Source of the DNA: an uncultured Desulfospira sp.
GTDB lineage: Bacteria; Desulfobacterota; Desulfobacteria; Desulfobacterales; Desulfobacteraceae
Assembly (NCBI GenBank): GCA_963663165.1
Contig: OY760175.1
Location: forward strand, 4,448,001 to 4,512,000
DNA length: 64,000 bases
Direction of reading: 5' to 3'
Shown: positions 10,377 through 50,706 of the stretch, in pieces
Layout: every line of letters starts with the position of its first letter
Numbering within the stretch: the first letter of the stretch is position 1
Made by a program: the position numbers and the translations under genes
Notes under the pieces: generated by a model
Databases searched by the model: none
Told to the model about the DNA's origin: nothing
Seen by the model: the letters and a program-made list of their open reading frames with translations, nothing else

Positions 10377-10385
10377 GTGACGTAA

Positions 10386-10415: not shown

Positions 10416-10445
10416 TCCCCTGACCGGATAATCGCAGATAATTTG

Positions 10446-13163: not shown

Positions 13164-13300
13164 TCTGCGTTTTTGCTACTTCAGGAGCCGTAAAAACGCT
13201 GCGGTTTTTGAAATGAGATGGGACACGGACCGAATATTCAGCAGGCGCTGGATTTCGTCGCATAGGGATTATCAATTCTTTTTTACGTCGCGTATGCAAA

Positions 13301-13371
13301 TAATCAATTTGATTAGTTGGCCGGTCTTCATCTATGAGTGGTAAAGGGAGAATTATGATATGAAATCATAA
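13301..13371. promoter_or_regulatory. Palindromic operator candidates upstream of the hydrogenase operon
   Basis: TAATCAA-T-TTGATTA (13301-13315) and TTATGAT-N5-ATCATAA (13353-13371). Confidence 0.45.
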
Positions 13372-13390
13372 GTATACCAATGGAGGTGCT

Positions 13391-14332: not shown

Positions 14333-14337
14333 CCGCC

Positions 14338-14404
14338 ACTGACGGCTAACGATTAACAGTTAAAAGCTAATGGCTGACGGCTAACCGTTAAAAGCCAACA
14401 GCTT
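14338..14404 (+). repeat. Family A heptamer tandem array (about 9 units)
   Basis: actgacg gctaacg attaaca gttaaaa gctaatg gctgacg gctaacc gttaaaa gccaaca, just before the large-subunit RBS. Confidence 0.8.
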
Positions 14405-14420
14405 ACGAAAGGATATTATT

Positions 14421-16058
14421 ATGGGTAAAAGAATTATTGTTGACCCGATTACCAGAATCGAGGGTCATTTGAGAATCGAAGTTGAAGTTGAAAACGGCAA
14501 AGTCAAGGATGCCTGGAGTTCAGGGCAGATGTTCCGGGGTATTGAGATGATGCTCCAGGGCCGGGATCCTCAGGATGCCCACCATTTTGTACAAAGGTCC
14601 TGCGGGGTCTGTACCTATATTCATGCCCTTTCTTCTGTCAGGGCTGTGGAAGATGCCTGTAACATTGAAATCCCTGAGAATGCCCGAATTATCCGGAACC
14701 TGCTTCACGGGGCCCAGTACCAGCATGACCATATTGTTCATTTTTATCACCTCCACGCCCTGGACTGGGTGGATATTGTCAGCGCCCTGTCAGCAGATCC
14801 GGTTAAAACCGCTAAACTTTCGGAAAATGTGTCCGGACGTCCCCAGAGTTCAGAATATTTCAAAACGGTTCAGACCAAGCTGACAACCTTTGTCAACAGC
14901 GGTCAGCTCGGCCCGTTTAACAACGCTTACTGGGGCCACTCCGCCTATCAGCTGCCGGCAGAAGCCAATCTCATGGCGGCTTCCCATTACCTGGAAGGCA
15001 TCAAACTCCAGGCCAAAGCCGCCCGGATGCATGCCATTTTCGGCGGCAAAAACCCCCATCCCCAGTCCCTGGTGGTGGGCGGTGTCACCTGTGTGGGCGA
15101 CCTGACCCCGGAAAGAATTGATGAGTTCGTGGATATCTGGAAAGAAACCAAAGCCTTTGTGGACGAAGTGTATCTGCCGGATCTCCTGGCCGTGGCCTCT
15201 TTTTATAAAAATTGGGGCGCCATTGGCGGAAACAACGACACCTTCCTGGCTTATGGCGACTTCCCCCAGAAAAATATCAATGACGACCTGCTGCTTCCCA
15301 GCGGGGTTCTTTTAGGAGACCTTAGCCCCAAAGCCGTGGATACTCAAAAAATCACTGAGGACGTTACCCGGTCCTGGTATGAAGACGGCAGCGCCAAACA
15401 TCCCTATGAGGGGGAAACCAAGCCCATCAAGGGTGAAGTGACCTACAACACGGAGGATAAGTACTCCTGGATAAAAGCCCCCCGGTATGCGGGCAAATCT
15501 GCTGAAGTCGGCCCCCTTTCAAGGGTTCTCGTGGCCTATACCAGCGGCCAGGAACACGTAAAGAAACTGGTGGACCATACCCTTAAAACCCTGGACGTGA
15601 AAACCGATGCCCTGTTCTCCACCCTGGGCAGAACCGCTGCCCGGGCCATTGAAACCGTGGTGGTCGGTGATGCCATGGAAGGATGGATTGATACCCTTAA
15701 ATCCAACATTTCTGCGGGCAACAAAAAGACCTACCAGTCCTGGACCATGCCGGACAAGGGCAGGGGATACGGCCTCAATGATGTTCCCCGGGGCGCTCTG
15801 GGCCACTGGATCGATATTGAGGGCGGCAAGATCAAAAATTACCAGTACGTGGTTCCCTCCACCTGGAACCTTGGTCCCAGCGACGCCTCAAATCAGAAAG
15901 GGCCTGTGGAAAGCTCTTTGATCGGCACCCCCATTGCCGATCCCCAAAAGCCCCTGGAAGTGTTGAGAACCGTCCATTCCTACGATCCGTGCATTGCCTG
16001 TGCCATACACGTGATTGATCCGCATACTAACGAAACCTATAAGGTAAGAGTGATATAG
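14421..16058 (+). CDS. Periplasmic [NiFe] hydrogenase large subunit (group 1)
   Basis: DPITRIEGH, RSCGVC, DPCIACAIH followed by a cleavable C-terminal tail; Cys, not Sec. Confidence 0.97.
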   Translation: MGKRIIVDPITRIEGHLRIEVEVENGKVKDAWSSGQMFRGIEMMLQGRDPQDAHHFVQRSCGVCTYIHALSSVRAVEDACNIEIPENARIIRNLLHGAQYQHDHIVHFYHLHALDWVDIVSALSADPVKTAKLSENVSGRPQSSEYFKTVQTKLTTFVNSGQLGPFNNAYWGHSAYQLPAEANLMAASHYLEGIKLQAKAARMHAIFGGKNPHPQSLVVGGVTCVGDLTPERIDEFVDIWKETKAFVDEVYLPDLLAVASFYKNWGAIGGNNDTFLAYGDFPQKNINDDLLLPSGVLLGDLSPKAVDTQKITEDVTRSWYEDGSAKHPYEGETKPIKGEVTYNTEDKYSWIKAPRYAGKSAEVGPLSRVLVAYTSGQEHVKKLVDHTLKTLDVKTDALFSTLGRTAARAIETVVVGDAMEGWIDTLKSNISAGNKKTYQSWTMPDKGRGYGLNDVPRGALGHWIDIEGGKIKNYQYVVPSTWNLGPSDASNQKGPVESSLIGTPIADPQKPLEVLRTVHSYDPCIACAIHVIDPHTNETYKVRVI

Positions 16059-16146
16059 GTTGATAGACTGAAGGCTGAAGGTGGATAGACTTAAAGGATG
16101 ATCAGAGCACTGACTTCCTTCAGCCTAAACACCTTCAGTCTAAACC
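16058..16146. repeat. Family B inverted repeat (AGACTGAAGGCTGAAGG / CCTTCAGCCTA)
   Basis: ggttgatagactgaaggctgaaggtggatagac...ccttcagcctaaacaccttcagtctaaacc. Confidence 0.85.
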
Positions 16147-16159
16147 CCTAAAGAAGATT

Positions 16160-16663
16160 ATGAATGACAATATTACCGTTCTTGGCGTGGGCAACATCCT
16201 TTACAGTGATGACGGCGTGGGCGTGCGCGTGGTTGAAGCGCTCATGGCGGCATACGAATTTTCAGACAACGTTTCCGTGGTGGACGGCGGGGTTTTGGGA
16301 ATCAACCTGCTGGGGGTGATTTCCAGTGCCGGCCGGCTCATTGTGGTGGATACGGTGTTAAATCATGGAAAGCCCGGTGATTTTCACCGTCTGGAACATG
16401 ACCAGATCCCGGACCGGATTCTGGCCAAGAACTCCCTTCACCAGGTGGACCTGATTGAGGCCCTGACCCTGTGCAAAGCCCTGGACCATGTGCCCCGGAC
16501 CACCATCATCGGCATTGAGCCTGAAGACTTAAATACCCTAAGCGACAAGCTGACCCCAACCATCCAGAACAAACTGGAAGAACTGACCCAAAAAGTCCTG
16601 GAGGAAGTCGGTAAACTCGGGGGCTCCTACACGCCTAAAAACGGGCAGCCTAAATCTTGTTGA
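16160..16663 (+). CDS. Hydrogenase maturation protease (HyaD/HybD family)
   Basis: VLGVGNILYSDDGVG, VDGG, SLHQ, IGIEP. Confidence 0.95.
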   Translation: MNDNITVLGVGNILYSDDGVGVRVVEALMAAYEFSDNVSVVDGGVLGINLLGVISSAGRLIVVDTVLNHGKPGDFHRLEHDQIPDRILAKNSLHQVDLIEALTLCKALDHVPRTTIIGIEPEDLNTLSDKLTPTIQNKLEELTQKVLEEVGKLGGSYTPKNGQPKSC

Positions 16664-36683: not shown

Positions 36684-36935
36684 ATGGAAGCCATTACTTA
36701 TACAAATGCAAGGCAAAATCTCGCTAAAACCATGGAAAAGGTCTGTAATGACCGTGCCCCCATCATTGTGACCCGAAAATCTTCAGGTTCTGTGGTCATG
36801 ATATCACTTGAAGATTATGAAGCCCTTGAAGAAACCGCCTATCTTCTGCGGTCACCAAAAAACGCCAGGCGTCTTATCGAATCCATCGCCCAGCTTGAAA
36901 GCGGTAAAGGACAGGAAAGGAAGCTGCTGGAGTGA
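36684..36935 (+). CDS. yefM: Antitoxin YefM (Phd/YefM family)
   Basis: ITYTNARQNLAKTM...PIIVTR...SLEDYEALEETAYLLRSPKNARRL. Confidence 0.97.
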   Translation: MEAITYTNARQNLAKTMEKVCNDRAPIIVTRKSSGSVVMISLEDYEALEETAYLLRSPKNARRLIESIAQLESGKGQERKLLE

Positions 36936-37186
36936 AGCTCATTTTTTCGGACCATGCATGGAATGACTATCTCTTCTGGCAGAAAACCGATAAAAAAGTT
37001 CTACGCCGTATTAACACACTTATTAAAGATACAAAGCGAACCCCATTTGAGGGTGTTGGTAAGCCTGAACCTTTAAAACATGCGCTTTTCGGCTACTGGT
37101 CCAGACGGATAACCGATGAACACCGGTTTGTATACCGGGTTTTTGAAAATTCAATTGAAGTTGCTCAACTGCGATACCACTATTGA
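36932..37186 (+). CDS. yoeB: Toxin YoeB (Txe/YoeB)
   Basis: AWNDYLFWQ.TDKK...PFEGVGKPEPLKH...WSRRITDEHR...LRYHY; GTGA overlap. Confidence 0.97.
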   Translation: MKLIFSDHAWNDYLFWQKTDKKVLRRINTLIKDTKRTPFEGVGKPEPLKHALFGYWSRRITDEHRFVYRVFENSIEVAQLRYHY

Positions 37187-38037
37187 TTTAAAACCACGCA
37201 GGCCATGATGTTGTAGACCAGCTGGGCGGCGGTAAAAGAGCAGGAATGAAGATAAGGGATCGGCGCCAGTTCAACCACATCAAAGCCGATACAGGTCCGG
37301 TTTTTTGTGATCGGTTTGATCAGGTCCATGGCCTGGAACCAGCCAAGGCCGCCGGGAACCGGGGTGCCGGTGGCCGGGACCAGGGACGGGTCCAAGCCGT
37401 CAATGTCAAAGGTGATATAGATTTGTTCGGGAAAATCGTCGGGCAGGGGGTTTTTCGGCAAATGCCGGTGGATCTCTTCGCTGTCAAAAAAGGGGATGGC
37501 GTGCTGTTGCCGGTATTCCTGCTCTTCAAGGCAATAACTCCGGGTGCCGACCTGGACCAGCGGAATGCCAAGCTCGTGTACCCGGCGCATGACACAGGCA
37601 TGGCTTAATGGGTTCTCTTCATAAATATTTCTTAAATCGGCATGGGCGTCAAACTGGACTACGCCAAACTGGGGGTGCCGTTTTCTCAAAGCGTTGACCG
37701 CGCCCAGGGTCACGGTATGTTCGCCGCCGAGAACAACCGGGATGCTGCGGGCAAGGCTTACCTCGTCTTCAATTCGTTCCAGCACTGCAGACACCGGGCC
37801 TTGGCAGTCAATGGGGGCTGCGGTATGAATGCCGTGGATGGAGGGATCAACCCCTAAGGCCAGGGTCTCCAGCTGGCAGGAGGCTTCAAGAATGGCGCTG
37901 GGGCCGTTGGCCGTACCGGTGCCGTAGGAGACAGACTGCTCTAAAGGAACCGGGATAACGTGGAACAGGGCGTCTTCAGGTGATGACGGGGCAACGTCAT
38001 CACCATGAAAATGAAGGTGCCGGGCTTCTTTTTTCAT
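37180..38037 (-). CDS. speB: Agmatinase
   Basis: GGEHTVT, DAHADLR, SHAC, DIDGLDP, PATGTPVPGG. Confidence 0.93.
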   Translation of the reverse strand: MKKEARHLHFHGDDVAPSSPEDALFHVIPVPLEQSVSYGTGTANGPSAILEASCQLETLALGVDPSIHGIHTAAPIDCQGPVSAVLERIEDEVSLARSIPVVLGGEHTVTLGAVNALRKRHPQFGVVQFDAHADLRNIYEENPLSHACVMRRVHELGIPLVQVGTRSYCLEEQEYRQQHAIPFFDSEEIHRHLPKNPLPDDFPEQIYITFDIDGLDPSLVPATGTPVPGGLGWFQAMDLIKPITKNRTCIGFDVVELAPIPYLHSCSFTAAQLVYNIMACVVLNQ

Positions 38038-39209
38038 TTGATCCTCCCCAGGTAATCGTCGTAACCAAAGGACTTTACCAGCCGGGGGGAATCATCCTTG
38101 CCTGAAAAAGTATAGATGGCCGGCAGCTCTACCCCGTTAAACGTAGTGTTTTTTACAAAAGTGTACAGGGCCATATCCGTTAAAACCAGCCGCTCCCCTG
38201 TCCTAAGGGGCGCAGCAAAAGAATAGTCGCCGATAATATCCCCGGCAAGGCAGGAAATTCCCCCTAACCGGAAGGTGTGGGCAAATTCTTCCGGTGTACC
38301 TGATCCCAGAATGTGGGGCCGATAGGGCATGGCCAGCACATCGGGCATGTGGGTTTCGGCTGAGCAGTCCAGCACGGCAATGTCAAGATCGTTGTGAATG
38401 ATGTCCGCCACCGAGGTGACAAAGACCCCGGCGTCAAGGACCACGGCTTCCCCGGGTTCAAGATAGACATCCACATGGTACTGTCTGCGAAACCGGTTGA
38501 TGGTGTCACAGAGCAGGTCAATGTCGTAGCCGGAGCGGGTGATATGGTGCCCCCCGCCCAGGTTGATCCATTCCATTTGCTGGATATAGGGTTTGAACCG
38601 GTCCTCGAAGCTTTCTAAAACCCGGACCAGCACATTGGCTCCCTGTTCGCAAAGGGCGTGAAAGTGAAGCCCGGTGATGCCTGACAGGTCTGCCCCTTCA
38701 AGGTCTTTGGCAGACACCCCGAACCGGGAGCCCGGCAGGCAGGGGTTGTATAAATCCACTTTAACCTCGGCATGGCCCGGGTTTACCCGGAGCCCTGCCT
38801 TAATCTTCCCTTTTTGGTTTACCTGCTCTTTATACCGGTTCCACTGGCCCATGGAGTTGAAGATCACATGATCAGAATAGGTTAACACCCGCGCCATCTG
38901 GGACGGTGTATAGGCCGGTGCATAGGTGTGGACCTGGCCGCCGAACTCCTCCCGGCCAAGCCTGGCCTCGATGGGGCCGGAGGCGCAGACCCCGGAAAGG
39001 TACCGGGAAAGCAGGGGAAATACCGCGGGCAGGGCAAAGGCCTTGAGGGCCAGCAGGATTTTAACACCGGCCTGTTCCCGGACCCGGGAAAGGATCCGGC
39101 CGTTGCGGTGCAGGACATCCTCGCTGATCAGGTAGCAGGGGGTTTTTACCTGATCAATGATCCGGATCGGAAAATACGCCAGGGTTTTCTGATCAAGGGC
39201 CTTGTTCAC
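38034..39209 (-). CDS. nspC: Carboxy(nor)spermidine decarboxylase
   Basis: LLALKAF, YNPC..GSRFG, GLHFHALCEQ, NLGGGHHIT, EPGEA, HMPDVL.MPY, CLAGD, VKNTTFNG; GTG start at 39209. Confidence 0.95.
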   Translation of the reverse strand: MNKALDQKTLAYFPIRIIDQVKTPCYLISEDVLHRNGRILSRVREQAGVKILLALKAFALPAVFPLLSRYLSGVCASGPIEARLGREEFGGQVHTYAPAYTPSQMARVLTYSDHVIFNSMGQWNRYKEQVNQKGKIKAGLRVNPGHAEVKVDLYNPCLPGSRFGVSAKDLEGADLSGITGLHFHALCEQGANVLVRVLESFEDRFKPYIQQMEWINLGGGHHITRSGYDIDLLCDTINRFRRQYHVDVYLEPGEAVVLDAGVFVTSVADIIHNDLDIAVLDCSAETHMPDVLAMPYRPHILGSGTPEEFAHTFRLGGISCLAGDIIGDYSFAAPLRTGERLVLTDMALYTFVKNTTFNGVELPAIYTFSGKDDSPRLVKSFGYDDYLGRIK

Positions 39210-39213
39210 CGCA

Positions 39214-40431
39214 TTACTCCGGAAGGCTGCCCGTAAAGTCAACGGCCTGCCAGGGAAGCCCGTTCTGGTTGAGCTCTTCCATAAAGGGGTCCGGGTCAAG
39301 TTGCTCCACGTTAAACACCCCCTGCCCTTTCCAGATGCCTTTGACCATCATCATGGCCCCGATCATGGCCGGCACACCGGTGGTGTAGGAGACGGCCTGG
39401 GCCTGCACCTCTTTAAAGGCCTCGGCATGGTCGCAGACATTGTAAATATATTTCTGAACGGGATTCCCGTCTTTTTCCCCTTTAACCACACAGCCGATAA
39501 CGGTTTTGCCCGTGTAGTTGCTCCCAAGGGAACCGGGATCGGGAAGCAGGGCCTTTAAAAACCGGATGGGGACGATCTTCTGCCCTTGAAACTCAATTTC
39601 ATCAATCCGGGTCATCCCCACGTTTTCCAGGACCTTAAGATGGGTCAGGTAAGGCTGCCCAAAGGTCATCCAGAACCGGATCCGTTTCAGGCCCGGGATA
39701 TGCCTGACCAAGGATTCCATTTCTTCGTGATACAGCAGATAGCTTTCCTTTGGGCCGGCCACCGGGTAGTCAAAGGTAAAGTGGACGCAGTCGTCTTCCA
39801 GGATCGGCGGGGTTTCCACCCAGGTGCCCTCCTGCCAGTGGCGGACCACCTGGGTGACTTCCCGGATATTGATTTCCGGGTTAAAGTTGGTGGCAAAAGG
39901 GTGGCCGTGGTCACCGGCATTGCAGTCCAGGATATCAATGGTTTCAATGGAAGAAAACAGATGCTTCTGGGCCCAGGCGCAGAAAATGTTGGTAACACCG
40001 GGATCAAACCCGCACCCCAGCAGGGCCATGAGCCCTTTTTCCTTAAATTTATCCTGGTAGGCCCATTGCCAGCTGTATTCAAAGTGGGCCGTGTCCTCGG
40101 GCTCATAATTGGCCGTGTCCATATAGTTGACCCCGCATGCAAGGCAGGCGTCCATAATGGACAGGTCCTGGTAGGGCAGGGCCACATTAATCACCAGTTC
40201 CGGCCGGCACCGCTCAAGCAGTTCAACCAGGTCATCCACCTTGTCGGCATCCACCTGGGCCGTGGTGATGGAAACGGTGCACAATTTTTCCACTTCTTCA
40301 GCGATGGCTTCGCATTTGGACAAGGTCCGGCTGGCAAGCCATATATCAGAAAATACATTTTTGTGCATGGCGCATTTTTTGGCGACCACGTTGCCGACGC
40401 CGCCGGCGCCGATAATCAGGACACGTGACAT
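39214..40431 (-). CDS. Carboxy(nor)spermidine dehydrogenase (saccharopine dehydrogenase family)
   Basis: IIGAGGVG, NVALPYQDL, DTANYEP, GFDPG, FATNFNPEINIRE, QAVSYTTGVP; between speA and nspC. Confidence 0.93.
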   Translation of the reverse strand: MSRVLIIGAGGVGNVVAKKCAMHKNVFSDIWLASRTLSKCEAIAEEVEKLCTVSITTAQVDADKVDDLVELLERCRPELVINVALPYQDLSIMDACLACGVNYMDTANYEPEDTAHFEYSWQWAYQDKFKEKGLMALLGCGFDPGVTNIFCAWAQKHLFSSIETIDILDCNAGDHGHPFATNFNPEINIREVTQVVRHWQEGTWVETPPILEDDCVHFTFDYPVAGPKESYLLYHEEMESLVRHIPGLKRIRFWMTFGQPYLTHLKVLENVGMTRIDEIEFQGQKIVPIRFLKALLPDPGSLGSNYTGKTVIGCVVKGEKDGNPVQKYIYNVCDHAEAFKEVQAQAVSYTTGVPAMIGAMMMVKGIWKGQGVFNVEQLDPDPFMEELNQNGLPWQAVDFTGSLPE

Positions 40432-40442
40432 ATTTTTCCTCC

Positions 40443-42344
40443 TTACTCTTTTTCAAAATAGGTGTAGCCCCGCAGGCCCTCTTCAAATTTCTTGAGAATG
40501 GTCTTGCGTTCTTTTGTTTTGATCAGCCCTTTTTCAATGGATTCTTCGGCTATCGCTTTGAGCCGCCCTTTAAAGGCCCGAAGGTCGTATTCCACATAAG
40601 ACAGGATATCTTCCACGGAGTCCCCCTCAATTTCATGGGCAAACTGGTAAGACCCGTCGGGGTTTGCCCTGATGGAGACAATATTGGTATCCCCGAACAG
40701 GTTGTGCAGGTCGCCTAAGGTTTCCTGGTAGGCCCCGACCAGGAAAACCCCCAGATAATACTCTTCATTTTCACGCAAAGGGTGAAGGGGAATCCGGTTT
40801 CTTTCCTGGTCTACCCCGGGAAAGGTGTCTAATTTACCGTCGCAGTCACAGGTGATATCGGAAATAATGGCCGGCCGGGTGGGTTCCTCGGTGAGCCGGT
40901 GAATGGGCATGATGGGCATGATCTGGTCTATGGCCCAGACATCGGGCAGGGATTGGAACAAGCTGAAATTGCCGTAATAGATGTCATAGACCAGCTCTTC
41001 AATGTTTTTGACCTCTTTGGGAACCCGGGTCAGGGTTTTGGCCACCTGGCTGATTTTAATCAGGATATGCTGGACCAGGTTTTCGGCAAGGGCCCGCTCC
41101 CGGATGGAGATCTGGCCGTGTTTGAACAACTGCCGGGCCTGGCTCCGGTAAAACAGGACATCGTTGCAGCACTCCTGCAGGTCCTTTGGGCTGACCATAT
41201 GATAATTGGCCAGTAAATTGTCAATCAGGTCATGGGCGGTTTCGGGCAGGTTTTCAGGAACAGGGGGCGGCTCAAAGGAGCTGACATCCAGAATGTTAAA
41301 CAGCAGAACAGATGAATAGGCCACCGTTGCCCTGCCCGATTCGGTGATGATAGTGGGGTGGGGAATCCCGCTTTTATCGAGCATGGTGATGATGGACTCC
41401 ACAATGTCGGTGCAGTATTCCTCCAAGGTGTAGTTCCGGCTTGAGGGGGTGTTGGAGTGGGACCCGTCATAGTCCACGGCAAGGCCACCGCCAAGGTCAA
41501 TAAACCCCATGGGAGCGCCTTCTTTGATCAGTTCTTCGTAAAGCCGGCACGCCTCCATGGCCCCGGCCCGGATGTCGCTGATGTTGGGAATCTGGGAGCC
41601 GATGTGGTAGTGGAGCAGTTTTAAAGTGGACAGCATATTTTCCTGTTTAAGCCGGTCAATGACATCTATCACATGGCTCATGGTCAGGCCAAAGACGCTG
41701 CTGTCCCCGCCGGATTCCGTCCATTTCCCTTCGGCCTGGGTGGACAGTTTGATCCTAAGGCCGATGTTGGGGGATATGGAAAGAACATGGGCCCGTTCAA
41801 TGATCAAATCGATTTCTCCGGGAACCTCCACCACAAAAATGACCTGGAACCCCATTTTAATGGCAAAAAGGCCAAGATCAATGAATTCTTCATCCTTGTA
41901 CCCGTTGCAGACCAGGCAGGCATCCCGGTTGTCCAGCATGGATATGGCGGCAATGAGCTCTGATTTGCTGCCCGCTTCAAGGCCGTGATTGTATTCCCTG
42001 CCGTATTTGGTGATGGTTTCCACCACCTGTTCCTGCTGGTTTACCTTTATGGGATAAACTCCCTTATATTCACCGGTATATCCGTTTTCTTTAATGGCGG
42101 TTCGAAACGCATCATGGAGAGATCCGATCTGGGAGCCAAGGATGTTTTCAATGCGAAGCAGAACCGGCATGGAATGGCCCCGGGCCTCTATTTCCCGGAT
42201 GATGTCAAACAGGCTGACTTTTGTATTGTTCCGGGCGCCAAACGGGGCAACAACCACCTCTCCCCGGTCATTTATGCTAAAGTATTCTGCCCCCCATTTG
42301 TCCACACCGTACAATTCGGTGGCCTGTTCCAGTGTCCAGGTCAT
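40443..42344 (-). CDS. speA: Biosynthetic arginine decarboxylase
   Basis: YPIKVNQ, GLEAGSK, CNGYKD, HYHIGSQI, DLGGGLAVDYDG, ESGRA, DITCDCDG, GAYQETLGDLHNLFG. Confidence 0.97.
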   Translation of the reverse strand: MTWTLEQATELYGVDKWGAEYFSINDRGEVVVAPFGARNNTKVSLFDIIREIEARGHSMPVLLRIENILGSQIGSLHDAFRTAIKENGYTGEYKGVYPIKVNQQEQVVETITKYGREYNHGLEAGSKSELIAAISMLDNRDACLVCNGYKDEEFIDLGLFAIKMGFQVIFVVEVPGEIDLIIERAHVLSISPNIGLRIKLSTQAEGKWTESGGDSSVFGLTMSHVIDVIDRLKQENMLSTLKLLHYHIGSQIPNISDIRAGAMEACRLYEELIKEGAPMGFIDLGGGLAVDYDGSHSNTPSSRNYTLEEYCTDIVESIITMLDKSGIPHPTIITESGRATVAYSSVLLFNILDVSSFEPPPVPENLPETAHDLIDNLLANYHMVSPKDLQECCNDVLFYRSQARQLFKHGQISIRERALAENLVQHILIKISQVAKTLTRVPKEVKNIEELVYDIYYGNFSLFQSLPDVWAIDQIMPIMPIHRLTEEPTRPAIISDITCDCDGKLDTFPGVDQERNRIPLHPLRENEEYYLGVFLVGAYQETLGDLHNLFGDTNIVSIRANPDGSYQFAHEIEGDSVEDILSYVEYDLRAFKGRLKAIAEESIEKGLIKTKERKTILKKFEEGLRGYTYFEKE

Positions 42345-42733: not shown

Positions 42734-42934
42734 TTAGCCTACTTTAAGATGGATATTATGGGATGCCAGGGTCGAGGTGACGGCCTGGTTCATTTGGGCA
42801 GGCGTCAGGTTTGACCGGTATTTCCCGCCAATCTCATTGATCTCAATTCCATCTATATTTTTCCGGGTCAGTTTAAGCAGTACGCTGAGCCCGAATGTTT
42901 TTTTAACTTCAAATAATTCTTTGGTGCTGTCCAT
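42734..42934 (-). CDS. Small hypothetical protein (66 aa)
   Basis: AAGGA RBS, own sigma54 promoter upstream and terminator downstream. Confidence 0.8.
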   Translation of the reverse strand: MDSTKELFEVKKTFGLSVLLKLTRKNIDGIEINEIGGKYRSNLTPAQMNQAVTSTLASHNIHLKVG

Positions 42935-42980: not shown

Positions 42981-42997
42981 TGCAAACCGTGTGCCAA
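42981..42997 (-). promoter_or_regulatory. Sigma54 (RpoN) -24/-12 promoter
   Basis: Minus strand TTGGCACACGGTTTGCA, matching TGGCAC-N5-TTGC. Confidence 0.85.
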
Positions 42998-43376: not shown

Positions 43377-43895
43377 ATGACCGGAACCATTGCAGCCCTG
43401 GTTGCTGTGGCCGCGGCTATAGGAATAGGCGTGACGGTGTTAAAAAAAAAGAAGCCGGCCCCGGCTTCTTCCGAGCCACCGCCCCCTGAGCCGGAACAGC
43501 CCCCTAAAGATGAGACAGAGTTCAGAACTGTCCTGGATTCTTTACTCAAGCTTAATTTGATGGTCAGAACCGATGCCGGGTTCCCTTCAGACCTGACCCT
43601 TGAGATTGAGGCCATCATGGATGACTTAAAATCCGTAATTCCTCCCATGATGGAGCGGTACCCGGGTGAAGCCCTGACCTATGAACTCAAAAAAATCGGG
43701 GGAAACCACCTTCATAAAATTGTAAAGGAATTTCTGGATCTTTCCGCTGAGAGCAGAAAGGCCCAGGACAATATTTTTAGAAATTCCATCAAGAACCTGC
43801 AAGAGGTGACCAAACGCTCCCGGCAGATTATTGAAAGCAATGAAACCGCTGAGTTTAAAACCATGGCGCACTTTCTGGCCGGAAAGTTCTCCTGA
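43377..43895 (+). CDS. Membrane-anchored helical protein, XpaC-like partner of TelA
   Basis: N-terminal TM, KKKK, Pro-rich linker, helical body; AGGAG RBS; position directly before telA as in xpaC-telA pairs (inference). Confidence 0.65.
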   Translation: MTGTIAALVAVAAAIGIGVTVLKKKKPAPASSEPPPPEPEQPPKDETEFRTVLDSLLKLNLMVRTDAGFPSDLTLEIEAIMDDLKSVIPPMMERYPGEALTYELKKIGGNHLHKIVKEFLDLSAESRKAQDNIFRNSIKNLQEVTKRSRQIIESNETAEFKTMAHFLAGKFS

Positions 43896-43898
43896 AAA

Positions 43899-43959
43899 TT
43901 TCGGACGAACCCTCACCCGGCTGCTGCAAAAATTTGTATCCGGGTAAATTTGGTCCAAC
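43899..43959. repeat. Short inverted-repeat element related to the 45285-45409 element
   Basis: ttcggacgaac...cacccgg...ccgggtaaatttggtccaa. Confidence 0.45.
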
Positions 43960-44049
43960 GCCAAATCGATAATATTGAAAAACAGATGAAGGCCGCCGGA
44001 TAATCATTTTCATCCTTTATCCCTCATCCTTTCATACAAGGAGAGATCC

Positions 44050-45282
44050 ATGAGCGAGGCAGTACAAGATCTTCAAAGTGTTGTGAGCCAGGCAAAGGCC
44101 CCGGTTCTGGCAGAAGTTACAGAAACGTCAGGTCAGGGCGCGTTAACGCCGGTTCAGGCTCCCTCCAACCTGGTGCCGGTGGAACCCAGACACCTGGCCC
44201 CTGAAGACCTCAAGGCCCTGGAGGCTGAGGCCGACGAATTTATAGAAAAGGTTAAAGCCGATCCGTCCAACTGGCAGCTGGGAAATTTTGTCTTTTCCTT
44301 AGGCCAGGAGATCATGGAACAGACCCAGGCCCAGGTCAGCCTTTATGACCGGAAAATGGGCAGTGTCCTTAAAAACGTGGCCACGGATGAATCCTCCCCG
44401 GTGGGGAAAAATATTCTGGCCATCAAAGTCGAGCTGGACAAGGTCAACCCCACCGTGGTGGCCAGAACCGAAATGCCCTTTCCCAAAAAGGTGATGGGCC
44501 TGTTTACAAGGACCGTAAACCGGCTGCCCAAGGGGGATGAGATCCTTAGAATTATTTCGGAAAGACGGGAAACCGTGAATTCCACCATTGACGGCATCCG
44601 GACCCATCTGCGCAACGAGGCCGACCAGGTGGCCTTTGATGCCTCGGAACTGGCCGTAATCTGTGATGCCTTAAAAGAGGTCCAGCCGGCCCTTCAGGAA
44701 AGAATTTTCCTGGGCCAGTTGATCTGGACCCGGCTTATGGCCCAGATTGAACAGGCCCAGGACCCCCGGATCAAGGAAGCCCTGACCACCCTCACCTCAG
44801 ACCTTGCCATGGCCGTGGTAGACCTTCAGACCATTGACAACTCCAATCTCCAGACCCGGTTCGGCGGGGAGATGATGGTTAGAAATTCCCATCTGGTCAA
44901 ACGGCTGGTCCAGAGAACCGACATGATCCTGTCCACGGCCGTGAAAAACGCGTTGGCCGTCCGGGTGGCGGCTGAACAGCAGATGGAAACCATGCAGCAT
45001 CTGGACATGGTCCAGCAGGCGGCCGCTGAAACCATGAAAGACACGGCCAAAGTAATTGGTGCTGCAGCAGTCAAGGGGGCCCAGATGAGCCAGTCCATGA
45101 CCGTGAATATTGATGCTTTGGAAGAGGCCTGCCAGACCTATGAACAGGCATTTGAAGCCTATGCCCAGATTTCAAAGGAGACCATCAGCATTGCCTCCCA
45201 GAGTTCCACGGCCTTAGGGCAGATGAATGAAAAATTCCGTGCCAGGACCGATGCCCTGACCGCCAGAAGACAGGAGACATAA
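44050..45282 (+). CDS. Toxic anion resistance protein (TelA/KlaB family), long coiled-coil
   Basis: 410-aa helical protein with LGQEIMEQ...ILAIKVELDKVNP...TVNSTIDGI...VNIDALEEA pattern typical of TelA. Confidence 0.75.
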   Translation: MSEAVQDLQSVVSQAKAPVLAEVTETSGQGALTPVQAPSNLVPVEPRHLAPEDLKALEAEADEFIEKVKADPSNWQLGNFVFSLGQEIMEQTQAQVSLYDRKMGSVLKNVATDESSPVGKNILAIKVELDKVNPTVVARTEMPFPKKVMGLFTRTVNRLPKGDEILRIISERRETVNSTIDGIRTHLRNEADQVAFDASELAVICDALKEVQPALQERIFLGQLIWTRLMAQIEQAQDPRIKEALTTLTSDLAMAVVDLQTIDNSNLQTRFGGEMMVRNSHLVKRLVQRTDMILSTAVKNALAVRVAAEQQMETMQHLDMVQQAAAETMKDTAKVIGAAAVKGAQMSQSMTVNIDALEEACQTYEQAFEAYAQISKETISIASQSSTALGQMNEKFRARTDALTARRQET

Positions 45283-45284
45283 GC

Positions 45285-45409
45285 GTTTGAACGACAATTC
45301 ACCCATCTGCGGCGTGGCTTCACAAATGATGTAATCCCCACAACCCTGAAGGTTGCTCCGGTTACAAATTTGCCTGCGCCTTGCATTTTAAGCAAATTCT
45401 CGTCCAAAC
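45285..45409. mobile_element. MITE-like non-autonomous palindromic element
   Basis: Imperfect terminal inverted repeats gtttgaacgacaatt / aattctcgtccaaac, nested hairpin tgtaatcc..caacc/ggttg..ggttaca; about 125 bp, non-coding. Confidence 0.6.
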
Positions 45410-45555
45410 CCAGGCCCCCGGCCAGACATTAAAGTATATATAAAATATGTAGATTATAAATTCACAACAAACCATGAAAGCCATGAAGGTCATGGCACTG
45501 GCAACCCTAACAGCCTTCAGCCTATGCCCCTTCAGTCTTTCATACGGGAGAAACT

Positions 45556-46194
45556 ATGATTGATCCGGCAGTGAAAAAATCCTATGAGGAACGGTTTTCC
45601 ATTATCCGGACCCTGACACCCGAAGCCCTGGTTCCGGAAAGGCAGCAGATGGAACTGACCCTGAAAGACATCGGGGCCGGGGCTTTTTTCAGCTTTGAAG
45701 GCCAAAGTTTTTATGTCAAAGAAACGGCCGTTTATGAGGAAACCTCTGAAAATTTCAAGACCCGCCAGGGATATACGGTTACTGAACTGACCTGTCTGTG
45801 TCTTGAAACCGGTGAGACCATCTGGTTTGAATGGGAATATGACGATGAGCTGGAAATCAGCCTGACCCAGGAACGGATTTCTTTTCGGCAACTGACGGAT
45901 GAAGACGGGGAGTCCATTGATGAGGATGACCTGGACCAGATTGCCGATGACCAGGATGTCGTGGTATATAAAGGGGAGAAATTCTGGTATGAAGACGACT
46001 GGGCCGCCATCTATGAACGGGGCGGCCAGGAAGAGAAGCTCTTTGTTTATGAGTTTGAAAACGAGGCGGGAAACCGGTACCTCTCCATTGAGGAATGGCA
46101 GGGCTCGGTCAGGGAAGAATACCAGATCTATACCAGCAGGCCTGTGGCCCCCGGTGCCGTCAATATTATCGCTGCAAAGACTGAAGGGAAATAG
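45556..46194 (+). CDS. DUF4178-like acidic protein
   Basis: Very acidic, aromatic beta-rich (IWFEWEYDDE, YLSIEEW); operon context with DUF350 and spermidine synthase. Confidence 0.65.
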   Translation: MIDPAVKKSYEERFSIIRTLTPEALVPERQQMELTLKDIGAGAFFSFEGQSFYVKETAVYEETSENFKTRQGYTVTELTCLCLETGETIWFEWEYDDELEISLTQERISFRQLTDEDGESIDEDDLDQIADDQDVVVYKGEKFWYEDDWAAIYERGGQEEKLFVYEFENEAGNRYLSIEEWQGSVREEYQIYTSRPVAPGAVNIIAAKTEGK

Positions 46195-46243
46195 ACTGAA
46201 GGCTGAAGGTTGCTCATACTTCAGCCTAACACCCTTCAGCCTA
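46178..46243. repeat. Family B inverted repeat overlapping the DUF4178 stop codon
   Basis: agactgaagggaaatagactgaaggctgaagg...cttcagcctaacacccttcagccta. Confidence 0.85.
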
Positions 46244-46273
46244 AGACCTAATACAAAAGGAGACTGATACAGG

Positions 46274-47905
46274 ATGTTTATAGGACACAGGAAGCTTTTC
46301 CAAAAGCTTATTCCCATCCTGATCCTGATTCCGGCACTGCTGGGATTGTCAGGATGCGGCCCCGGTCTTCCCGACCAGGTAAAACAAAAGGCCAAGGAAA
46401 TCCCCGGTGCCATAGAAAAATCGCGAACCACCCTGGAAGACCAGAGGAAAAAATTTTCTGTTCTTGTTTCCAGCCCGGATTTTAACCCCTTTGCTTCCTA
46501 TGCCCAAAAAGAGGACTGGGAGGGTAACTTTCAAAAAGCCGCCACCGGCCTTGACCGGGCAGAGACCCTTTTTAAACAGGATTTAAAGCCCCTGATCAAA
46601 CAGGACAAGCCGGAACTGTCCGGGCCCGTAACCGCCCAGACCCTGCGGATTAACAAGGTGATCAAAGAGGCTGGCCAGCAGGCCCGGTATCCCTTCGAGC
46701 GGTTTGCAAAGTTTAAAATTGCCCGGGAAAACATGGCCGGTATCCAGAAAGAGGCCCAGGACCAGGCCCGGAAAATTCAGGCCCTGGTGAACGACCTTGA
46801 AGGGACCGAAGTGGCAAAGGCCAAAACAGATTTTCCCGATGCGGTTGAAAAAATCGATGCCCGGTTTGCCCCGTTTGTGAAAATGCGCCGGGACTGCCAG
46901 GCCGCAACCAAAGCCATTGAAAAAGAGGTCAAAAACAAACAGGCCGGGCAGGCGGTTGACCTGGCGTTGTTCGTTGACAGCGCCGATGCCGTGGCAGAGG
47001 ATTATACCCTTGCAGCCGAGTCTGAAAAAAAATTCAAATCATCCATAGCCGGGCTTTACCAAAGCTATACCAAGGTCCTTCAGGATATGAAGCAGGAGTA
47101 TGCTGTGACCATCAAGCGCGAATCCTGGGATGAGCGGTCTGATTACAACACCTCCAAGATTGAGGTCTACAGACAGCCGGTGGATGCCCAGACCTTTGAG
47201 GCCCTGAATGACACCGAGCTTGACTCTATTGCATCCATTGTCCCGGGATTTTCTTCCAGCAGCCTGAAAAACCGGATCGGCCCGGCCTGGGATGCGCTGA
47301 ACATCAACCCCACAGAGCGCTGGCCTTCCGGGCATAATGCGGCCGAGTTCTGGGTTGACCAGACCGTGGTCCGCTGTTTTCACAAGTATCTTCTGGAAGA
47401 GGAAGGAAAAACCCGGGAAACCGACTGGGAAGAGGTGAACCCAAGTTTTTTTGAACAAAACTTTGAAAATTTGGGCATGGCCATTGTGTCCAAGCCTTAC
47501 GGGGTATTTGAGGAAGACTGCCTTACCCAGGCGGCCCCCCCGGGCATGGCCTATGTGGGCAACCCGGAATACGGGGAGTGGAAAACCGATAACAACGGGG
47601 ACCGCTTCTGGTCCTGGTACGGCAGATATGCCTTTTTCTCCAACCTGTTCTTTTTTCCGCCCTATTATTACTCTTACCGCTCCTGGCGGGGCTGGCATGA
47701 CAACTACCGGTATAAAAAGCCCTACTACGGCACCACGGCATCCGGGGGGAAGACGTTCGGCACCTCTGGCTCAACGGTTAAAACCTCGCCCCGGTATCAA
47801 GGTTCAACCTTTTCCAAGTCCGGCGGCTTTAAAACCAAGGCTCCGTCCGTCAGGGGGGCAAGCTCCAGGGTCCGGGGCGGCGGCCCGGGGGCAAGAGGGA
47901 AGTAG
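46274..47905 (+). CDS. Hypothetical lipoprotein with coiled-coil body and Gly/Ser/Arg-rich tail
   Basis: Lipobox LGLSGC; APPGMAYVGNPEYGEW...FWSWYGRYAFF; tail SSRVRGGGPGARGK. Confidence 0.85.
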   Translation: MFIGHRKLFQKLIPILILIPALLGLSGCGPGLPDQVKQKAKEIPGAIEKSRTTLEDQRKKFSVLVSSPDFNPFASYAQKEDWEGNFQKAATGLDRAETLFKQDLKPLIKQDKPELSGPVTAQTLRINKVIKEAGQQARYPFERFAKFKIARENMAGIQKEAQDQARKIQALVNDLEGTEVAKAKTDFPDAVEKIDARFAPFVKMRRDCQAATKAIEKEVKNKQAGQAVDLALFVDSADAVAEDYTLAAESEKKFKSSIAGLYQSYTKVLQDMKQEYAVTIKRESWDERSDYNTSKIEVYRQPVDAQTFEALNDTELDSIASIVPGFSSSSLKNRIGPAWDALNINPTERWPSGHNAAEFWVDQTVVRCFHKYLLEEEGKTRETDWEEVNPSFFEQNFENLGMAIVSKPYGVFEEDCLTQAAPPGMAYVGNPEYGEWKTDNNGDRFWSWYGRYAFFSNLFFFPPYYYSYRSWRGWHDNYRYKKPYYGTTASGGKTFGTSGSTVKTSPRYQGSTFSKSGGFKTKAPSVRGASSRVRGGGPGARGK

Positions 47906-47911
47906 GGCATT

Positions 47912-48012
47912 TAGGTGGATAGGCTGAAGACTGAAGGTCATTTTTAAGAATAGGGATTAACAACATACTTCAGCCTAAACCCCTTCAGCCTATCAGCTAA
48001 GCTTACAGCTAA
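47912..48012. repeat. Family B inverted repeat plus family A units
   Basis: taggtggataggctgaagactgaagg...cttcagcctaaaccccttcagcctatcagctaagcttacagctaa. Confidence 0.85.
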
Positions 48013-48031
48013 TTAAAAGGAGACATATATC

Positions 48032-48922
48032 ATGACGGCAGGAGGCATCTTCACAGGTCTGTTCCAGGGATTTTTCTTTTCCCTGGTCAGTATTTTTTTT
48101 ATATGGCTTGCCAAAATTGCTGATGACCGGCGGACCCGGGATTTTGATGATGATGAGCACATTGACAATGGAAACCTGGCCGTGGGCCTTCGGCGGGGCG
48201 GCCTTTATCTCGGGATTGCCCTTGGCCTGTCAGGCGCCCTTGACGGCCCTTCAGTTGGGTTTTTTACAGATACCTTCCATCTGATTGTCGACGGGGTCCT
48301 GGTGGTGGGGTTTTTGTTTTTATCCCGGTTTATCAATGACTTTCTCATGCTGGGCCATGTGTCCAATGATGAGGAGTGTGTCAGACAGTTTATTTTGGAG
48401 GACGGCCGGACCATTGTGGGAAATACGGCGGTGGGGCTGGTGGAAGCCGGCATGTATATTGCCACAGGGCTGATCCTTAAAGGCAGCCTGTCCGGCGGGG
48501 GCGGCACCTTTTTTCAGTCTCTGGGCAGTGCGGTTCTGTTTTTCATCTTAGGCCAGCTCGCCCTTTTGATTTTCGGATTTCTCTATGAACTGGCCACCCG
48601 GTTTAATATCAGGGATGAAATCAAAAAGAACAACCCGGCCGCAGGCTTAAGCCTTGGCGGCATCCTCATTGCCTTAGGGGTAATTTTAATGGGAAGCGTT
48701 TCCGGCCCGTTCCTGGGGTGGGGAGCCGACGTTGCCGGATTTTTTGTCTATACCGTATACGGCATTATCCTGCTGCTGGCATTCCGGCTGCTCATTGACC
48801 GGCTTTTGCTGCCCACCACCAATATGGCTGTTGAAATCACCGAAGACCAGAATGTTTCGGCCATGGTTGTGGTGGAATGTGCTATGACGGCGGTGGCCCT
48901 GGTGATTGCCTTTGCCATGTAA
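48032..48922 (+). CDS. DUF350 (YjfL-like) membrane protein, duplicated domain
   Basis: Repeated EHIDNGNLAVGL / GNTAVGL / DEIKKNNPAAGL / EITEDQNVSA motifs between TM helices. Confidence 0.85.
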   Translation: MTAGGIFTGLFQGFFFSLVSIFFIWLAKIADDRRTRDFDDDEHIDNGNLAVGLRRGGLYLGIALGLSGALDGPSVGFFTDTFHLIVDGVLVVGFLFLSRFINDFLMLGHVSNDEECVRQFILEDGRTIVGNTAVGLVEAGMYIATGLILKGSLSGGGGTFFQSLGSAVLFFILGQLALLIFGFLYELATRFNIRDEIKKNNPAAGLSLGGILIALGVILMGSVSGPFLGWGADVAGFFVYTVYGIILLLAFRLLIDRLLLPTTNMAVEITEDQNVSAMVVVECAMTAVALVIAFAM

Positions 48923-48924
48923 TT

Positions 48925-49010
48925 TGGGGATATGGGACTTGGGACCTGGGATGTGGGGTGCGCTGTCGGATAACCCCAAACCCCATGTCCCATATCCCAA
49001 ACCCCATGTC
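48925..49010. repeat. Family C heptamer inverted repeat (TGGGAYN)
   Basis: tggggatatgggacttgggacctgggatgtgggg...ccccaaaccccatgtcccatatcccaaaccccatgtc; right arm contains the probable speE start. Confidence 0.85.
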
Positions 49011-50706
49011 TTTTAAAGATCCTTTGACATCACCGTTTAAAAATAGATCCTTCAACTTTGCCTCTTTTCTGCTGGCCTCCTGCATGCTGGCGTCCGGGGC
49101 CTGCGGGATTATTCTGGAGTATATCCAGGCATCCCTGGCCTCCATGATCCTGGGCAATGCCTTTGAGCAGTGGGCCATGGTCATCGGGCTGATGCTGTTC
49201 TGGATGGGGTTCGGCAGCCTGATTCAAAAAAATATCCCTAAAGCCCTTTTGATTCCCGCCTTTATCGGCATTGAAACCGGGCTGGCCCTGGCCGGGGGAT
49301 TTTCCCCGACCTTGACCTATCTGTCTTACGGGTATACGGGCCATTATCCCCTGATTCTCTATTTTTTTGTCAGCCTGATCGGTATCCTCATCGGGCTTGA
49401 GATTCCGGTGATCATAAGGATCAACAACGATTATTCAACCGAGCTGTCCACCAATCTGGGCCATATCCTGAGCGCCGACTATATCGGGTCTTTGATCGGG
49501 GCCCTGGTTTATGTCTTTGTCCTGCTCCGGTTCTTTCCCATTACCGAGGGGGCGTTTCTGACCGCCGGGATCAACTTTTCCCTGGCCCTGGTGACCTTTG
49601 TCTATTTTACGAAAAAAAAGTTGATTCCGGGGGGCGGGCTTCTTTTTGTGCTGATGGCCCTGGTGTGTGCGGCCCTTGTCTTCGGGTATCACAACAGCCG
49701 ACAGTGGCAGGTCAAAAACGAACAGCCCCTTTATGATGATCCGGTGGTGTTCAGTAAAACCACCCGGTATCAGCACATTGTCATTACCCATTACAAGCCG
49801 TTGGATGAGATCCGGCTGTTTTTAAACGGCAACCTTCAGCTTTCCAGCCTGGATGAAGACCGGTACCATGAGTCGCTGGTCCACCCGGCCATGAACCTGG
49901 CCGTTGCCAAAACCAGGGTGTTGATCCTGGGCGGGGGAGACGGCTGTGCGTTACGGGAGGTCCTTAAATACCCTGAGGTCAAAGCGGTGGTCCTGGTGGA
50001 CCTTGACCCGGATATGACCCTCCTTGCCGCATCCCACCCCCTGCTGGTCCGGCTCAATGGGGGCGCATTCAAGGACAGCCGGCTGGTTTGCCTTGACGGT
50101 TCCGGAATCAGCCCGGGAGAAGATCGCAAGGTTTATGTGAATACCGGTTCCAGAAAAAAAGGAACCCTGAAGGCAAAGGAACTTGCCCGGGTCAATATCA
50201 TGAATATTGATGCGGACCGGTTTTTGTCTAAGGTGAAAGGGTTCTGGGACGTGATCATTGTGGACCTGCCCGATCCCTCCACCCCGGAGCTTGCCAAGCT
50301 TTACTCAAAGGAGTTTTATGCCAAAATCAAGCGAAAACTGGGCAAAACCGGCCTGGCCGTGATCCAGGCCACCTCCCCGTATTTTGCAAAGCAAAGCTTT
50401 CTTTGTATCGGCAGGACTCTTGAAGCCGCAGGCCTTTGTATCCTTCCCTTCCACGAAAACGTGCCCAGCTTCGGCGACTGGGGCTGGTTCCTGGCCTGGA
50501 ACCCGGTGCTGGGTGAACCCTTTGTCTCAGGCCGGATGAATCAGCTTGAAATTCCGGTTCCCACCCGGTTCATCAGCCCTGAGGTGTTTAAGCGCCAGAC
50601 GATTTTCGGCAAAGGCATGCTCAAGACCCAGGAAACATCAGTCAACACCCTGCTTTATCCGGTGCTGCTCACTTTGTACAACCATGAATCCTGGCTTACG
50701 GAATAA
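49006..50706 (+). CDS. speE: Polyamine aminopropyltransferase (spermidine synthase-like) with N-terminal membrane domain
   Basis: About 7 TM helices, then TRYQHI, LFLNGNLQ..SLDEDRYHESLVHP, LILGGGDG..LREVLK, VDLD, DVIIVDLPDP, VPSFGDWG. Confidence 0.9.
   Translation: MSFKDPLTSPFKNRSFNFASFLLASCMLASGACGIILEYIQASLASMILGNAFEQWAMVIGLMLFWMGFGSLIQKNIPKALLIPAFIGIETGLALAGGFSPTLTYLSYGYTGHYPLILYFFVSLIGILIGLEIPVIIRINNDYSTELSTNLGHILSADYIGSLIGALVYVFVLLRFFPITEGAFLTAGINFSLALVTFVYFTKKKLIPGGGLLFVLMALVCAALVFGYHNSRQWQVKNEQPLYDDPVVFSKTTRYQHIVITHYKPLDEIRLFLNGNLQLSSLDEDRYHESLVHPAMNLAVAKTRVLILGGGDGCALREVLKYPEVKAVVLVDLDPDMTLLAASHPLLVRLNGGAFKDSRLVCLDGSGISPGEDRKVYVNTGSRKKGTLKAKELARVNIMNIDADRFLSKVKGFWDVIIVDLPDPSTPELAKLYSKEFYAKIKRKLGKTGLAVIQATSPYFAKQSFLCIGRTLEAAGLCILPFHENVPSFGDWGWFLAWNPVLGEPFVSGRMNQLEIPVPTRFISPEVFKRQTIFGKGMLKTQETSVNTLLYPVLLTLYNHESWLTE

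Follow-up and report, generated by a model that had tools for sequence, protein, structure and literature searches.

An operon published in 2024 (PMC11237479) joins a CesT/Tir-PspA pair to a seven-transmembrane (7TM) spermine/spermidine-synthase protein, a YjfL protein with eight transmembrane (TM) segments and DUF350, a lipoprotein described as 'LipoSIG+Ctha_1186+Low-comp' and a DUF4178 protein. In that paper, the gene order in Shewanella (SO_3765 context) is lipoprotein, YjfL, SpeE, CesT/Tir, PspA, DUF4178 and a ribbon-helix-helix (RHH) protein; a mycobacterial operon, which lacks PspA, consists of TM+DUF4178, DUF2617, a DUF4247 lipoprotein, YjfL and TM+Spermine_synth; and in a sister group, the E. 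coli yjf type, an ATP-grasp ligase takes the place of the synthase. Its authors proposed that such operons monitor polyamines, or aminopropylate other substrates and so alter membrane structure (PMC11237479). TelA-family proteins have been described in another setting, namely the xpaC-telA pair of Firmicutes. In Enterococcus faecium this pair belongs to the envelope-stress response and affects daptomycin binding and phospholipid domains (passages from PMC6811118), and in Listeria it is among the genes discussed as bacteriocin-responsive, a telA mutant being more sensitive to nisin (passages from PMC12791056). Here we describe a six-gene operon in a 64,000-nucleotide stretch of the chromosome of an uncultured Desulfospira sp. 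(contig OY760175.1, positions 4,448,001 to 4,512,000; hereafter the window). Its identity as a TelA-type form of the 7TM-SpeE/DUF350/lipoprotein/DUF4178 envelope system is well supported. The core of 7TM-SpeE, 8TM DUF350, lipoprotein and DUF4178 as a PspA-linked operon is already published in PMC11237479; what appears to be new is that a small membrane protein (g1) and TelA stand immediately ahead of DUF4178 where the published operon has CesT/Tir-PspA, an arrangement of which we found no record in print. The name TelA is absent from the main text and supplement of PMC11237479, DUF4178 was met in the searched literature only in that work, no publication joining TelA to DUF4178 was found among the matches listed in our literature search, and a search with the mycobacterial gene names returned no functional data.

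Six open reading frames (ORFs) lie on the plus strand at positions 43377-50706 of the window (Table 1), co-directional and with the coordinates and gene list that a first-pass annotation, made from the sequence letters, had assigned to them; ORF and model searches bore this out. Searches with hidden Markov models likewise confirmed four of the families that had been named there, TelA (79.5 bits against a cut-off of 30, E 3.1e-22, model positions 31-328 of 332), DUF4178 (44.4 bits against 25, E 2.3e-11), DUF350, matched in two stretches (165 bits, E 1.2e-48), and Spermine_synth (104.3 bits). By hydropathy g1 has one TM segment, the doubled DUF350 protein about eight and SpeE seven; the lipoprotein shows a signal/lipobox segment, and no TM segment was seen in TelA or DUF4178. 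The products fall into three groups: two integral membrane proteins, one exported lipoprotein and three proteins of the cytoplasmic side (g1, TelA and DUF4178). The window has a G+C content of about 51%, which the operon shares with its surroundings, and homologs assign it to Desulfobacteraceae. Its closest relative is an uncultured Desulfospira chromosome (OY761554.1, locus L001 of the set described below), the two lipoproteins being 90% identical.

Compared with the Shewanella PspA operon, the window shares four of its six products, namely the 7TM+Spermine_synth protein, the 8TM DUF350 protein, DUF4178 and a lipoprotein with a low-complexity tail, and it likewise has a two-gene unit of a partner and a helical membrane-stress protein immediately before DUF4178. 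In the window, however, this unit is g1+TelA, whereas in Shewanella it is DUF2170/CesT-Tir+PspA; the gene order is cyclically permuted, the RHH regulator is missing, and none of the six operon proteins belongs to the PspA or CesT family. Since the core families are the same and the two-gene unit is another one, the window operon is a TelA-type variant of the published operon. With the PspA-less mycobacterial operon it shares the order DUF4178, lipoprotein, DUF350, SpeE, but it has no DUF2617, its lipoprotein gives no DUF4247 match and g1+TelA is added upstream. In the E. coli yjfIJKLMC type (CesT/Tir-PspA, DUF350, a DUF1190 lipoprotein and an ATP-grasp glutathionylspermidine-synthetase-like ligase; PMC11237479) we again find a stress protein, DUF350, a lipoprotein and an enzyme of polyamine chemistry, but the window has an aminopropyltransferase, a doubled DUF350 and TelA instead of PspA, and no ATP-grasp domain of this kind was found in the six genes or their neighbours. 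The same paper confirms two points that the first-pass annotation had brought up, namely that PspA is associated with DUF4178, DUF350 and 7TM-SpeE and that the yjf-type operon with its ATP-grasp enzyme has a parallel layout. The Firmicutes xpaC-telA (yaaN) pair, linked to envelope stress (passages from PMC6811118 and PMC12791056), resembles the window in that a TelA-family gene follows one for a small membrane protein whose cytoplasmic part is helical; it differs in that g1 has no match to PF10112, and the passages seen of these two papers do not report the pair joined to SpeE, DUF350 or DUF4178. A further likeness concerns the enzyme. Work of Li and colleagues from 2019 reportedly described a fusion of a major facilitator superfamily (MFS) domain with a spermidine synthase (SpdSyn) domain, found with S-adenosylmethionine (AdoMet) decarboxylase (AdoMetDC) and DUF350, and related membrane fusions are said not to have complemented an E. 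coli speE mutant. As in that fusion, in the window a membrane domain and a SpdSyn-like domain are clustered with DUF350, and a variant from Alteromonas (see below) has AdoMetDC also; the window SpeE, however, belongs to PRK03612 and stays below the cut-off of the MFS/SpdSyn fusion family NF037959 (35 bits against 40).

The operon is maintained across relatives. For the genome scan a 12-sequence lipoprotein alignment was used, a first one of 42 sequences being too diverse, and among 134 genomic relatives of the lipoprotein the best 80 were kept as loci, whose ORFs were searched with the window proteins. The detected operon genes were co-directional in all 80. Directly upstream of the lipoprotein gene g1+TelA+DUF4178 was found in 62 of the 67 loci with at least 2.7 kb of upstream DNA, and the doubled DUF350 and SpeE genes were present in 63 of the 64 loci with at least 2.8 kb of downstream DNA; L007 lacks this downstream pair. 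Synteny is therefore strong on both sides, the gene arrangement is far beyond chance, and the window holds a genuine, strongly conserved six-gene operon of sulfate-reducing bacteria. The full order was kept even in loci labelled Acidobacteriota (L067, L070), Bipolaricaulia (L077) and Nanoarchaeota (L068, its label taken as given). In five distant loci (L067, L068, L072, L075 and L077) Pfam identified a DUF2617 gene between DUF4178 and the lipoprotein, and this insertion links the distant relatives to the published PspA-less operon of mycobacterial type. Upstream of g1 we noticed a promoter-like pair of words, CTTGTAAA and TGCATTATT, in 32 of 65 regions, mostly 18-19 nt apart and in most of these 32 regions 50-125 nt upstream of g1, which would fit g1 as the first gene of the operon; a sigma-54 promoter was found upstream of g1 in 0 of the 65 regions. 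The operon of L025 is interrupted by about 7.5 kb (2405-9941), an insert coding for an HD-domain signalling protein, dihydroorotate dehydrogenase subunits and a phosphoribosyltransferase. Downstream of SpeE 15 loci have a co-directional potassium-channel gene (Ion_trans_2 plus RCK/TrkA domain; for example L068 14512-15120 and L029 18563-19591), which resembles the channel reported in ATP-grasp sister operons.

In the unit which stands in place of CesT/Tir-PspA, the start codon of g1 is ATG 43377, preceded by the ribosome-binding site AGGAGA, in an ORF that opens at TTG 43332. The protein has one N-terminal TM segment (residues 4-22), then KKKK, a linker rich in Pro and some 120 aa of helical domain; KKKK after the TM segment predicts that this domain is cytoplasmic, on the side of TelA. 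We found 258 homologs at E<=1e-3, which make up a family of its own, and an alignment of 29 members displayed conserved motifs with invariant positions, distant members having two TM segments. Neither the window protein nor its relatives fall in a Pfam family. The first-pass annotation had called g1 XpaC-like, and as a candidate XpaC it was rejected, PF10112 (XpaC / Halogen_Hydrol) matching 0 of the 29 members, and not the window protein either, at E<=10; the only likeness to PF10112 was a language-model atlas cluster at rank 14 (score 0.77), which is a lead at most. No fused g1 forms turned up among longer proteins, which is weak evidence. XpaC is a small TM-anchored helical protein, and g1 is also a small TM-anchored helical protein encoded just before telA, as in the XpaC-telA arrangement. 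Hence, of the proposal that TelA and an XpaC-like protein occupy the slot of PspA, the position stands, TelA with a small membrane partner being found where CesT/Tir-PspA sits before DUF4178, and the XpaC label falls. From adjacency and topology we infer that g1 may be the membrane tether or partner of TelA. TelA itself has the highest median identity to the window of the six genes across Desulfobacteraceae (82%, the lipoprotein having 47%), while the TelA proteins of distant loci are about 25% identical to it and reach higher Pfam scores (155-179 bits); the PF05816 cut-off was also passed by TelA of L002, L067, L068, L070, L073, L077 and Alteromonas. The window protein thus belongs to a diverged but tightly conserved subfamily. 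It is all-helical without TM segments, and a poor AlphaFold2 (AF2) model (predicted local distance difference test, pLDDT, 54.4) has long helices at 164-235, 239-313 and 354-409. A tblastn search with TelA against plasmids gave no match, and sequence-profile searches of the PDB with TelA, DUF4178 and the lipoprotein gave nothing meaningful.

The last gene of the operon encodes a 7-TM domain followed by a C-terminal catalytic domain, and its product scored 576.7 bits with NCBIfam PRK03612 (NF002956) against an equivalog cut-off of 472. Best PDB matches of the catalytic domain were the polyamine aminopropyltransferase 7xif (2.7e-28), the thermospermine synthase 6bq2 and the Thermus enzyme, and it is nearest to thermospermine and long-substrate aminopropyltransferases. 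The motifs YQ, YHE, GGGDG, DLD and DxPDP, whose residues we take from the SpeE literature to bind decarboxylated AdoMet (dcSAM) and the amine, are each invariant in 64 of 64 operon SpeE proteins (window plus 63 loci), so that the motifs are intact as the first-pass annotation had said; also invariant, as a change specific to the family, is LNGN, at a place where LDD, LDG or LDK stands in the solved enzymes shown. A direct repeat, CCCAAACCCCATGTC, is present twice at 48960-49010 around two candidate ATG starts of SpeE, and its true start is uncertain. Divergently upstream of the operon lie speA (820.6 bits against 369), a carboxyspermidine-dehydrogenase-like (CASDH-like) gene (408.5 bits, under its cut-off of 800), nspC (476.8 against 409) and an agmatinase gene (202.6 against 174.3), which are predicted to provide the alternative carboxyspermidine route to spermidine. 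Two Alteromonas mediterranea plasmids carry SpeE-speD-g1-like-TelA-DUF4178-lipoprotein-DUF350 in one direction and in permuted order. The speD product is an AdoMet decarboxylase (PF02675 1.2e-28; TIGR03330 105.5 against 75.65), the g1-like gene was matched to g1 by hhalign at 94% (E 1.4e-7), TelA to PF05816 at 1.1e-25 and the lipoprotein by hhalign at 99.9%. These plasmids extend the TelA type to Gammaproteobacteria, and speD inside the operon ties the enzyme to dcSAM. Membrane SpeE genes also occur on replicons of Ralstonia, Ensifer and Gemmatirosa, where they lie outside this operon, so the operon marks a subset of the enzyme family. The passages available from PMC11107197 contain nothing on membrane forms of the enzyme.

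Among the remaining products, the DUF4178 protein is acidic, has neither signal peptide nor TM segment and is predicted to be cytoplasmic, and DUF4178 has been described as a beta-rich intracellular partner (PMC11237479). The lipoprotein has the lipobox LSGC with Cys28, and its AF2 model (pLDDT 89.1) shows a bundle of helices at 34-262, a domain rich in beta structure at 265-450 and a tail rich in aromatic residues and Gly; the model gave no PDB fold match at E<=1e-3, and an atlas search returned unnamed clusters only. The lipobox and low-complexity tail fit these elements of the published 'LipoSIG+Ctha_1186+Low-comp' layout. The tail is disordered and ends in an invariant ...RGGGPGxxGK, and across 42 diverse relatives R527, R534, G537, P538, G542 and the terminal K543 were invariant or nearly so, which suggests that residues 522-543 may be a recognition or modification motif. 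The first-pass annotation had considered this lipoprotein unusually large. Of 777 representative relatives at E<=1e-3, however, 137 of the best 150 measured 500-575 aa, and 543 aa is therefore normal for the family.

On balance we judge it fairly probable that the window operon is a TelA-type variant of the envelope operon, with a membrane aminopropyltransferase and with TelA in the role of PspA. Aminopropylation at the membrane would then serve the stress response, the core of this idea being already present in the 2024 paper (PMC11237479). The aminopropyltransferase would use dcSAM to aminopropylate an amine at the membrane; its substrate would most likely be spermidine or another polyamine from the separate carboxyspermidine pathway, yielding a longer polyamine, and less likely a non-polyamine molecule of the envelope. 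The conserved acidic 7-TM domain and DUF350 could take charge of the cationic substrate or product, either inside the membrane or on its way across, with the lipoprotein as periplasmic partner, and TelA, held at the membrane by g1 and acting with DUF4178, would take over the job of PspA in stabilising or monitoring a stressed inner membrane.

A number of observations weigh against this account. The spacers between the six genes are long in the window (154, 273, 79, 126 and about 62 nt in order, against medians of 33.5, 30, 2, 21 and 6 nt in relatives, computed with the longest ORF taken for each start), and a single transcript is a prediction from the layout. About 210 nt of the 273-nt TelA-DUF4178 spacer are missing from L001; an Rfam scan gave no match in the operon, this spacer included, and no terminator-like site was found inside the operon spacers of the window. 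The 80 loci are the nearest relatives of one lipoprotein, mostly Desulfobacteraceae, and as such are not a census. Even among them L074 and L079 lack the upstream trio, and two Desulfatibacillum loci, L072 (8174-9417) and L075 (8145-9402), have a two-TM g1-like gene, DUF4178 and DUF2617 with TelA absent, which means that g1 is not strictly tied to TelA; a 522-aa protein upstream of g1 in L072 was considered as TelA and rejected, not being TelA-like. Adjacency of the polyamine biosynthesis cluster is common only to L001 among the 80 loci, and the cluster is hence context and not part of the system. No AdoMet decarboxylase was found in the window, nor one resembling the Alteromonas enzyme within 10 kb in the 80 loci. 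By sequence, the TelA profile and E. coli PspA are unrelated (hhalign 0.14%). Foldseek gave 0 matches at E<=1e-3 with the poor TelA model; nine Vipp1/PspA chains and one ESCRT-III chain were among the weak matches listed, with probability up to 0.99 and E 0.03-0.3, and a fold likeness of TelA to Vipp1/PspA that comes from a poor model and non-significant E-values is no more than a lead. Finally, the positive-inside rule predicts an extracytoplasmic catalytic domain of SpeE in 64 of 64 proteins, at odds with a cytoplasmic dcSAM donor.

This last point leads to an alternative account of the enzyme, in which the catalytic domain would be periplasmic, the 7-TM domain would pass dcSAM or the amine and a target in the envelope would be aminopropylated. 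In the loops of SpeE taken in order, the mean number of K+R residues is 2.42, 0, 2.14, 0.03, 2.0, 0.05 and 2.02, giving sums of 8.58 for even and 0.08 for odd loops, with even above odd in 64 of 64 proteins. Under the positive-inside rule the N-terminus is then cytoplasmic, and the catalytic domain is predicted outside because it begins about 20 residues after TM7 and no other hydrophobic segment comes between. The TM domain, which equals the catalytic domain in conservation, includes invariant E97 (TM3), E139 (TM4) and D165, a pattern that suggests a site for handling cations more than simple anchoring; E97 and E139 lie inside the membrane segments. The partner lipoprotein is exported, with a disordered tail that has invariant residues, and 'aminopropylation of other substrates' is raised in PMC11237479. 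As candidate targets one may think of the head group of a lipid, a polymer of the cell wall or surface, or the invariant C-terminal tail of this lipoprotein. The dcSAM-binding motifs of SpeE are, on the other hand, ordinary, and the topology was derived with a hydropathy window and by counting charges, not with a dedicated predictor. We know of no dcSAM pool outside the cytoplasm, which counts against a catalytic domain placed there, and for this reason, together with the simplicity of the counts, we regard a periplasmic catalytic domain as unlikely. The fuller scheme, extracytoplasmic aminopropylation in which the 7-TM domain, perhaps with DUF350, hands over dcSAM or the acceptor and TelA, g1 and DUF4178 guard or gate the cytoplasmic face, is likewise unlikely. 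If true it would be a novel type of cationic envelope modification and the first role of dcSAM besides soluble polyamine synthesis, and an outward-facing catalytic domain, if real, would mean asking which envelope molecule is modified and no longer which polyamine.

Simpler explanations were also weighed against the TelA-type envelope operon. SpeE passes the NCBIfam 'polyamine aminopropyltransferase' equivalog, its catalytic residues are intact and polyamine biosynthesis genes are adjacent, all of which could be expected if it were the housekeeping spermidine synthase, merely anchored in the membrane beside unrelated genes. But with speA, the CASDH-like gene, nspC and agmatinase the neighbouring cluster already makes up a full carboxyspermidine route, and as this separate route to spermidine adjoins the operon SpeE is probably not the housekeeping enzyme; moreover, in 63 of 64 loci its gene is bound to five non-metabolic genes by the conserved operon, and its TM domain is conserved as much as the catalytic one. 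We therefore hold a housekeeping role to be quite improbable.

Phage defence had been offered by the first-pass annotation beside stress as the purpose of the system. In its favour one can name a match of SpeE to the PADLOC model mad2 at 4e-11, the plasmid-borne Alteromonas copy, which lies beside a DNA cytosine methyltransferase gene and many hypothetical genes, and a YefM/YoeB pair 6 kb away in the window. The mad2 match, however, covers the common methyltransferase fold only and the other five proteins have no match in PADLOC-DB 2.0, and the suggestion is not supported; the G+C content of the operon matches its surroundings, the flanks are conserved and housekeeping in nature (BipA in 30 loci, for example), and no nuclease, NTPase or abortive-infection effector is present. 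An anti-phage system is accordingly very improbable. Equally remote is a determinant of resistance to tellurite or toxic anions, for which TelA family membership speaks, as does a 2-fold higher tellurite sensitivity of a Listeria telA mutant (PMC12791056, in a passage citing Collins 2010); the same passage gives a larger effect for nisin, the scanned ORFs of the window include no further Ter or Teh gene, and the partner genes code for polyamine and envelope proteins.

The operon shows one cassette accepting either PspA with a chaperone or TelA with a membrane partner, and the SpeE/DUF350/lipoprotein/DUF4178 module has been reported, or was seen here, in records labelled proteobacteria, an actinobacterium, Acidobacteriota and Thermodesulfobacteriota. 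TelA, long named for 'tellurite resistance', would gain a testable role as stand-in for PspA at a stressed membrane, and the TelA variant would offer a second, independent handle on the job of the core cassette. The Alteromonas version, with its own AdoMet decarboxylase, is a compact gene set for heterologous reconstitution.

Table 1. Positions of the operon genes and of related features in the window and in other loci
Feature	Position	Strand	Remarks
g1 membrane protein	43377-43895	+	172 aa, no Pfam family
TelA-family protein	44050-45282	+	410 aa, PF05816
TelA-DUF4178 spacer	45283-45555		273 nt
DUF4178 protein	45556-46194	+	212 aa, PF13785
Lipoprotein	46274-47905	+	543 aa, no Pfam family
Doubled DUF350 (YjfL-type) protein	48032-48922	+	296 aa, PF03994
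Membrane polyamine aminopropyltransferase (SpeE)	48985-50706	+	alternative starts 48877, 49006
Divergent polyamine biosynthesis cluster (agmatinase, nspC, CASDH-like, speA)	37180-42344	-	context only
Alteromonas TelA-type operon	L082 (NZ_CP018025.1) 6977-13635		also NZ_CP018028.1
DUF2617 gene, L067	9412-9972		
DUF2617 gene, L068	9411-9980		
DUF2617 gene, L072	9417-10007		
DUF2617 gene, L075	9312-9986		
DUF2617 gene, L077	3146-3874		

Some other features of the window were noticed. Between speA and the operon lies a minus-strand ORF of 66 aa (42734-42934), conserved in L001 and without a Pfam or NCBIfam family. A perfect sigma-54 consensus, TGGCACACGGTTTGCA (42981-42996, minus strand), stands 47 nt before its ATG and is the sole match with 0 mismatches among 28 sigma-54 matches in the window, and a strong terminator with a 13-bp stem (42644-42613) follows the ORF. 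The YefM/YoeB type II toxin-antitoxin pair (36684-37186) is located beside the polyamine cluster. A cobalamin riboswitch (RF00174, 71.2 bits, 10103-10388, minus strand) was found upstream of a glycosyl-transferase-family-3 gene and a fused alcohol-dehydrogenase/DBI_PRT (CobT-like) gene, and the small and large subunits of a [NiFe] hydrogenase are encoded with a maturation protease at 13391-16663.

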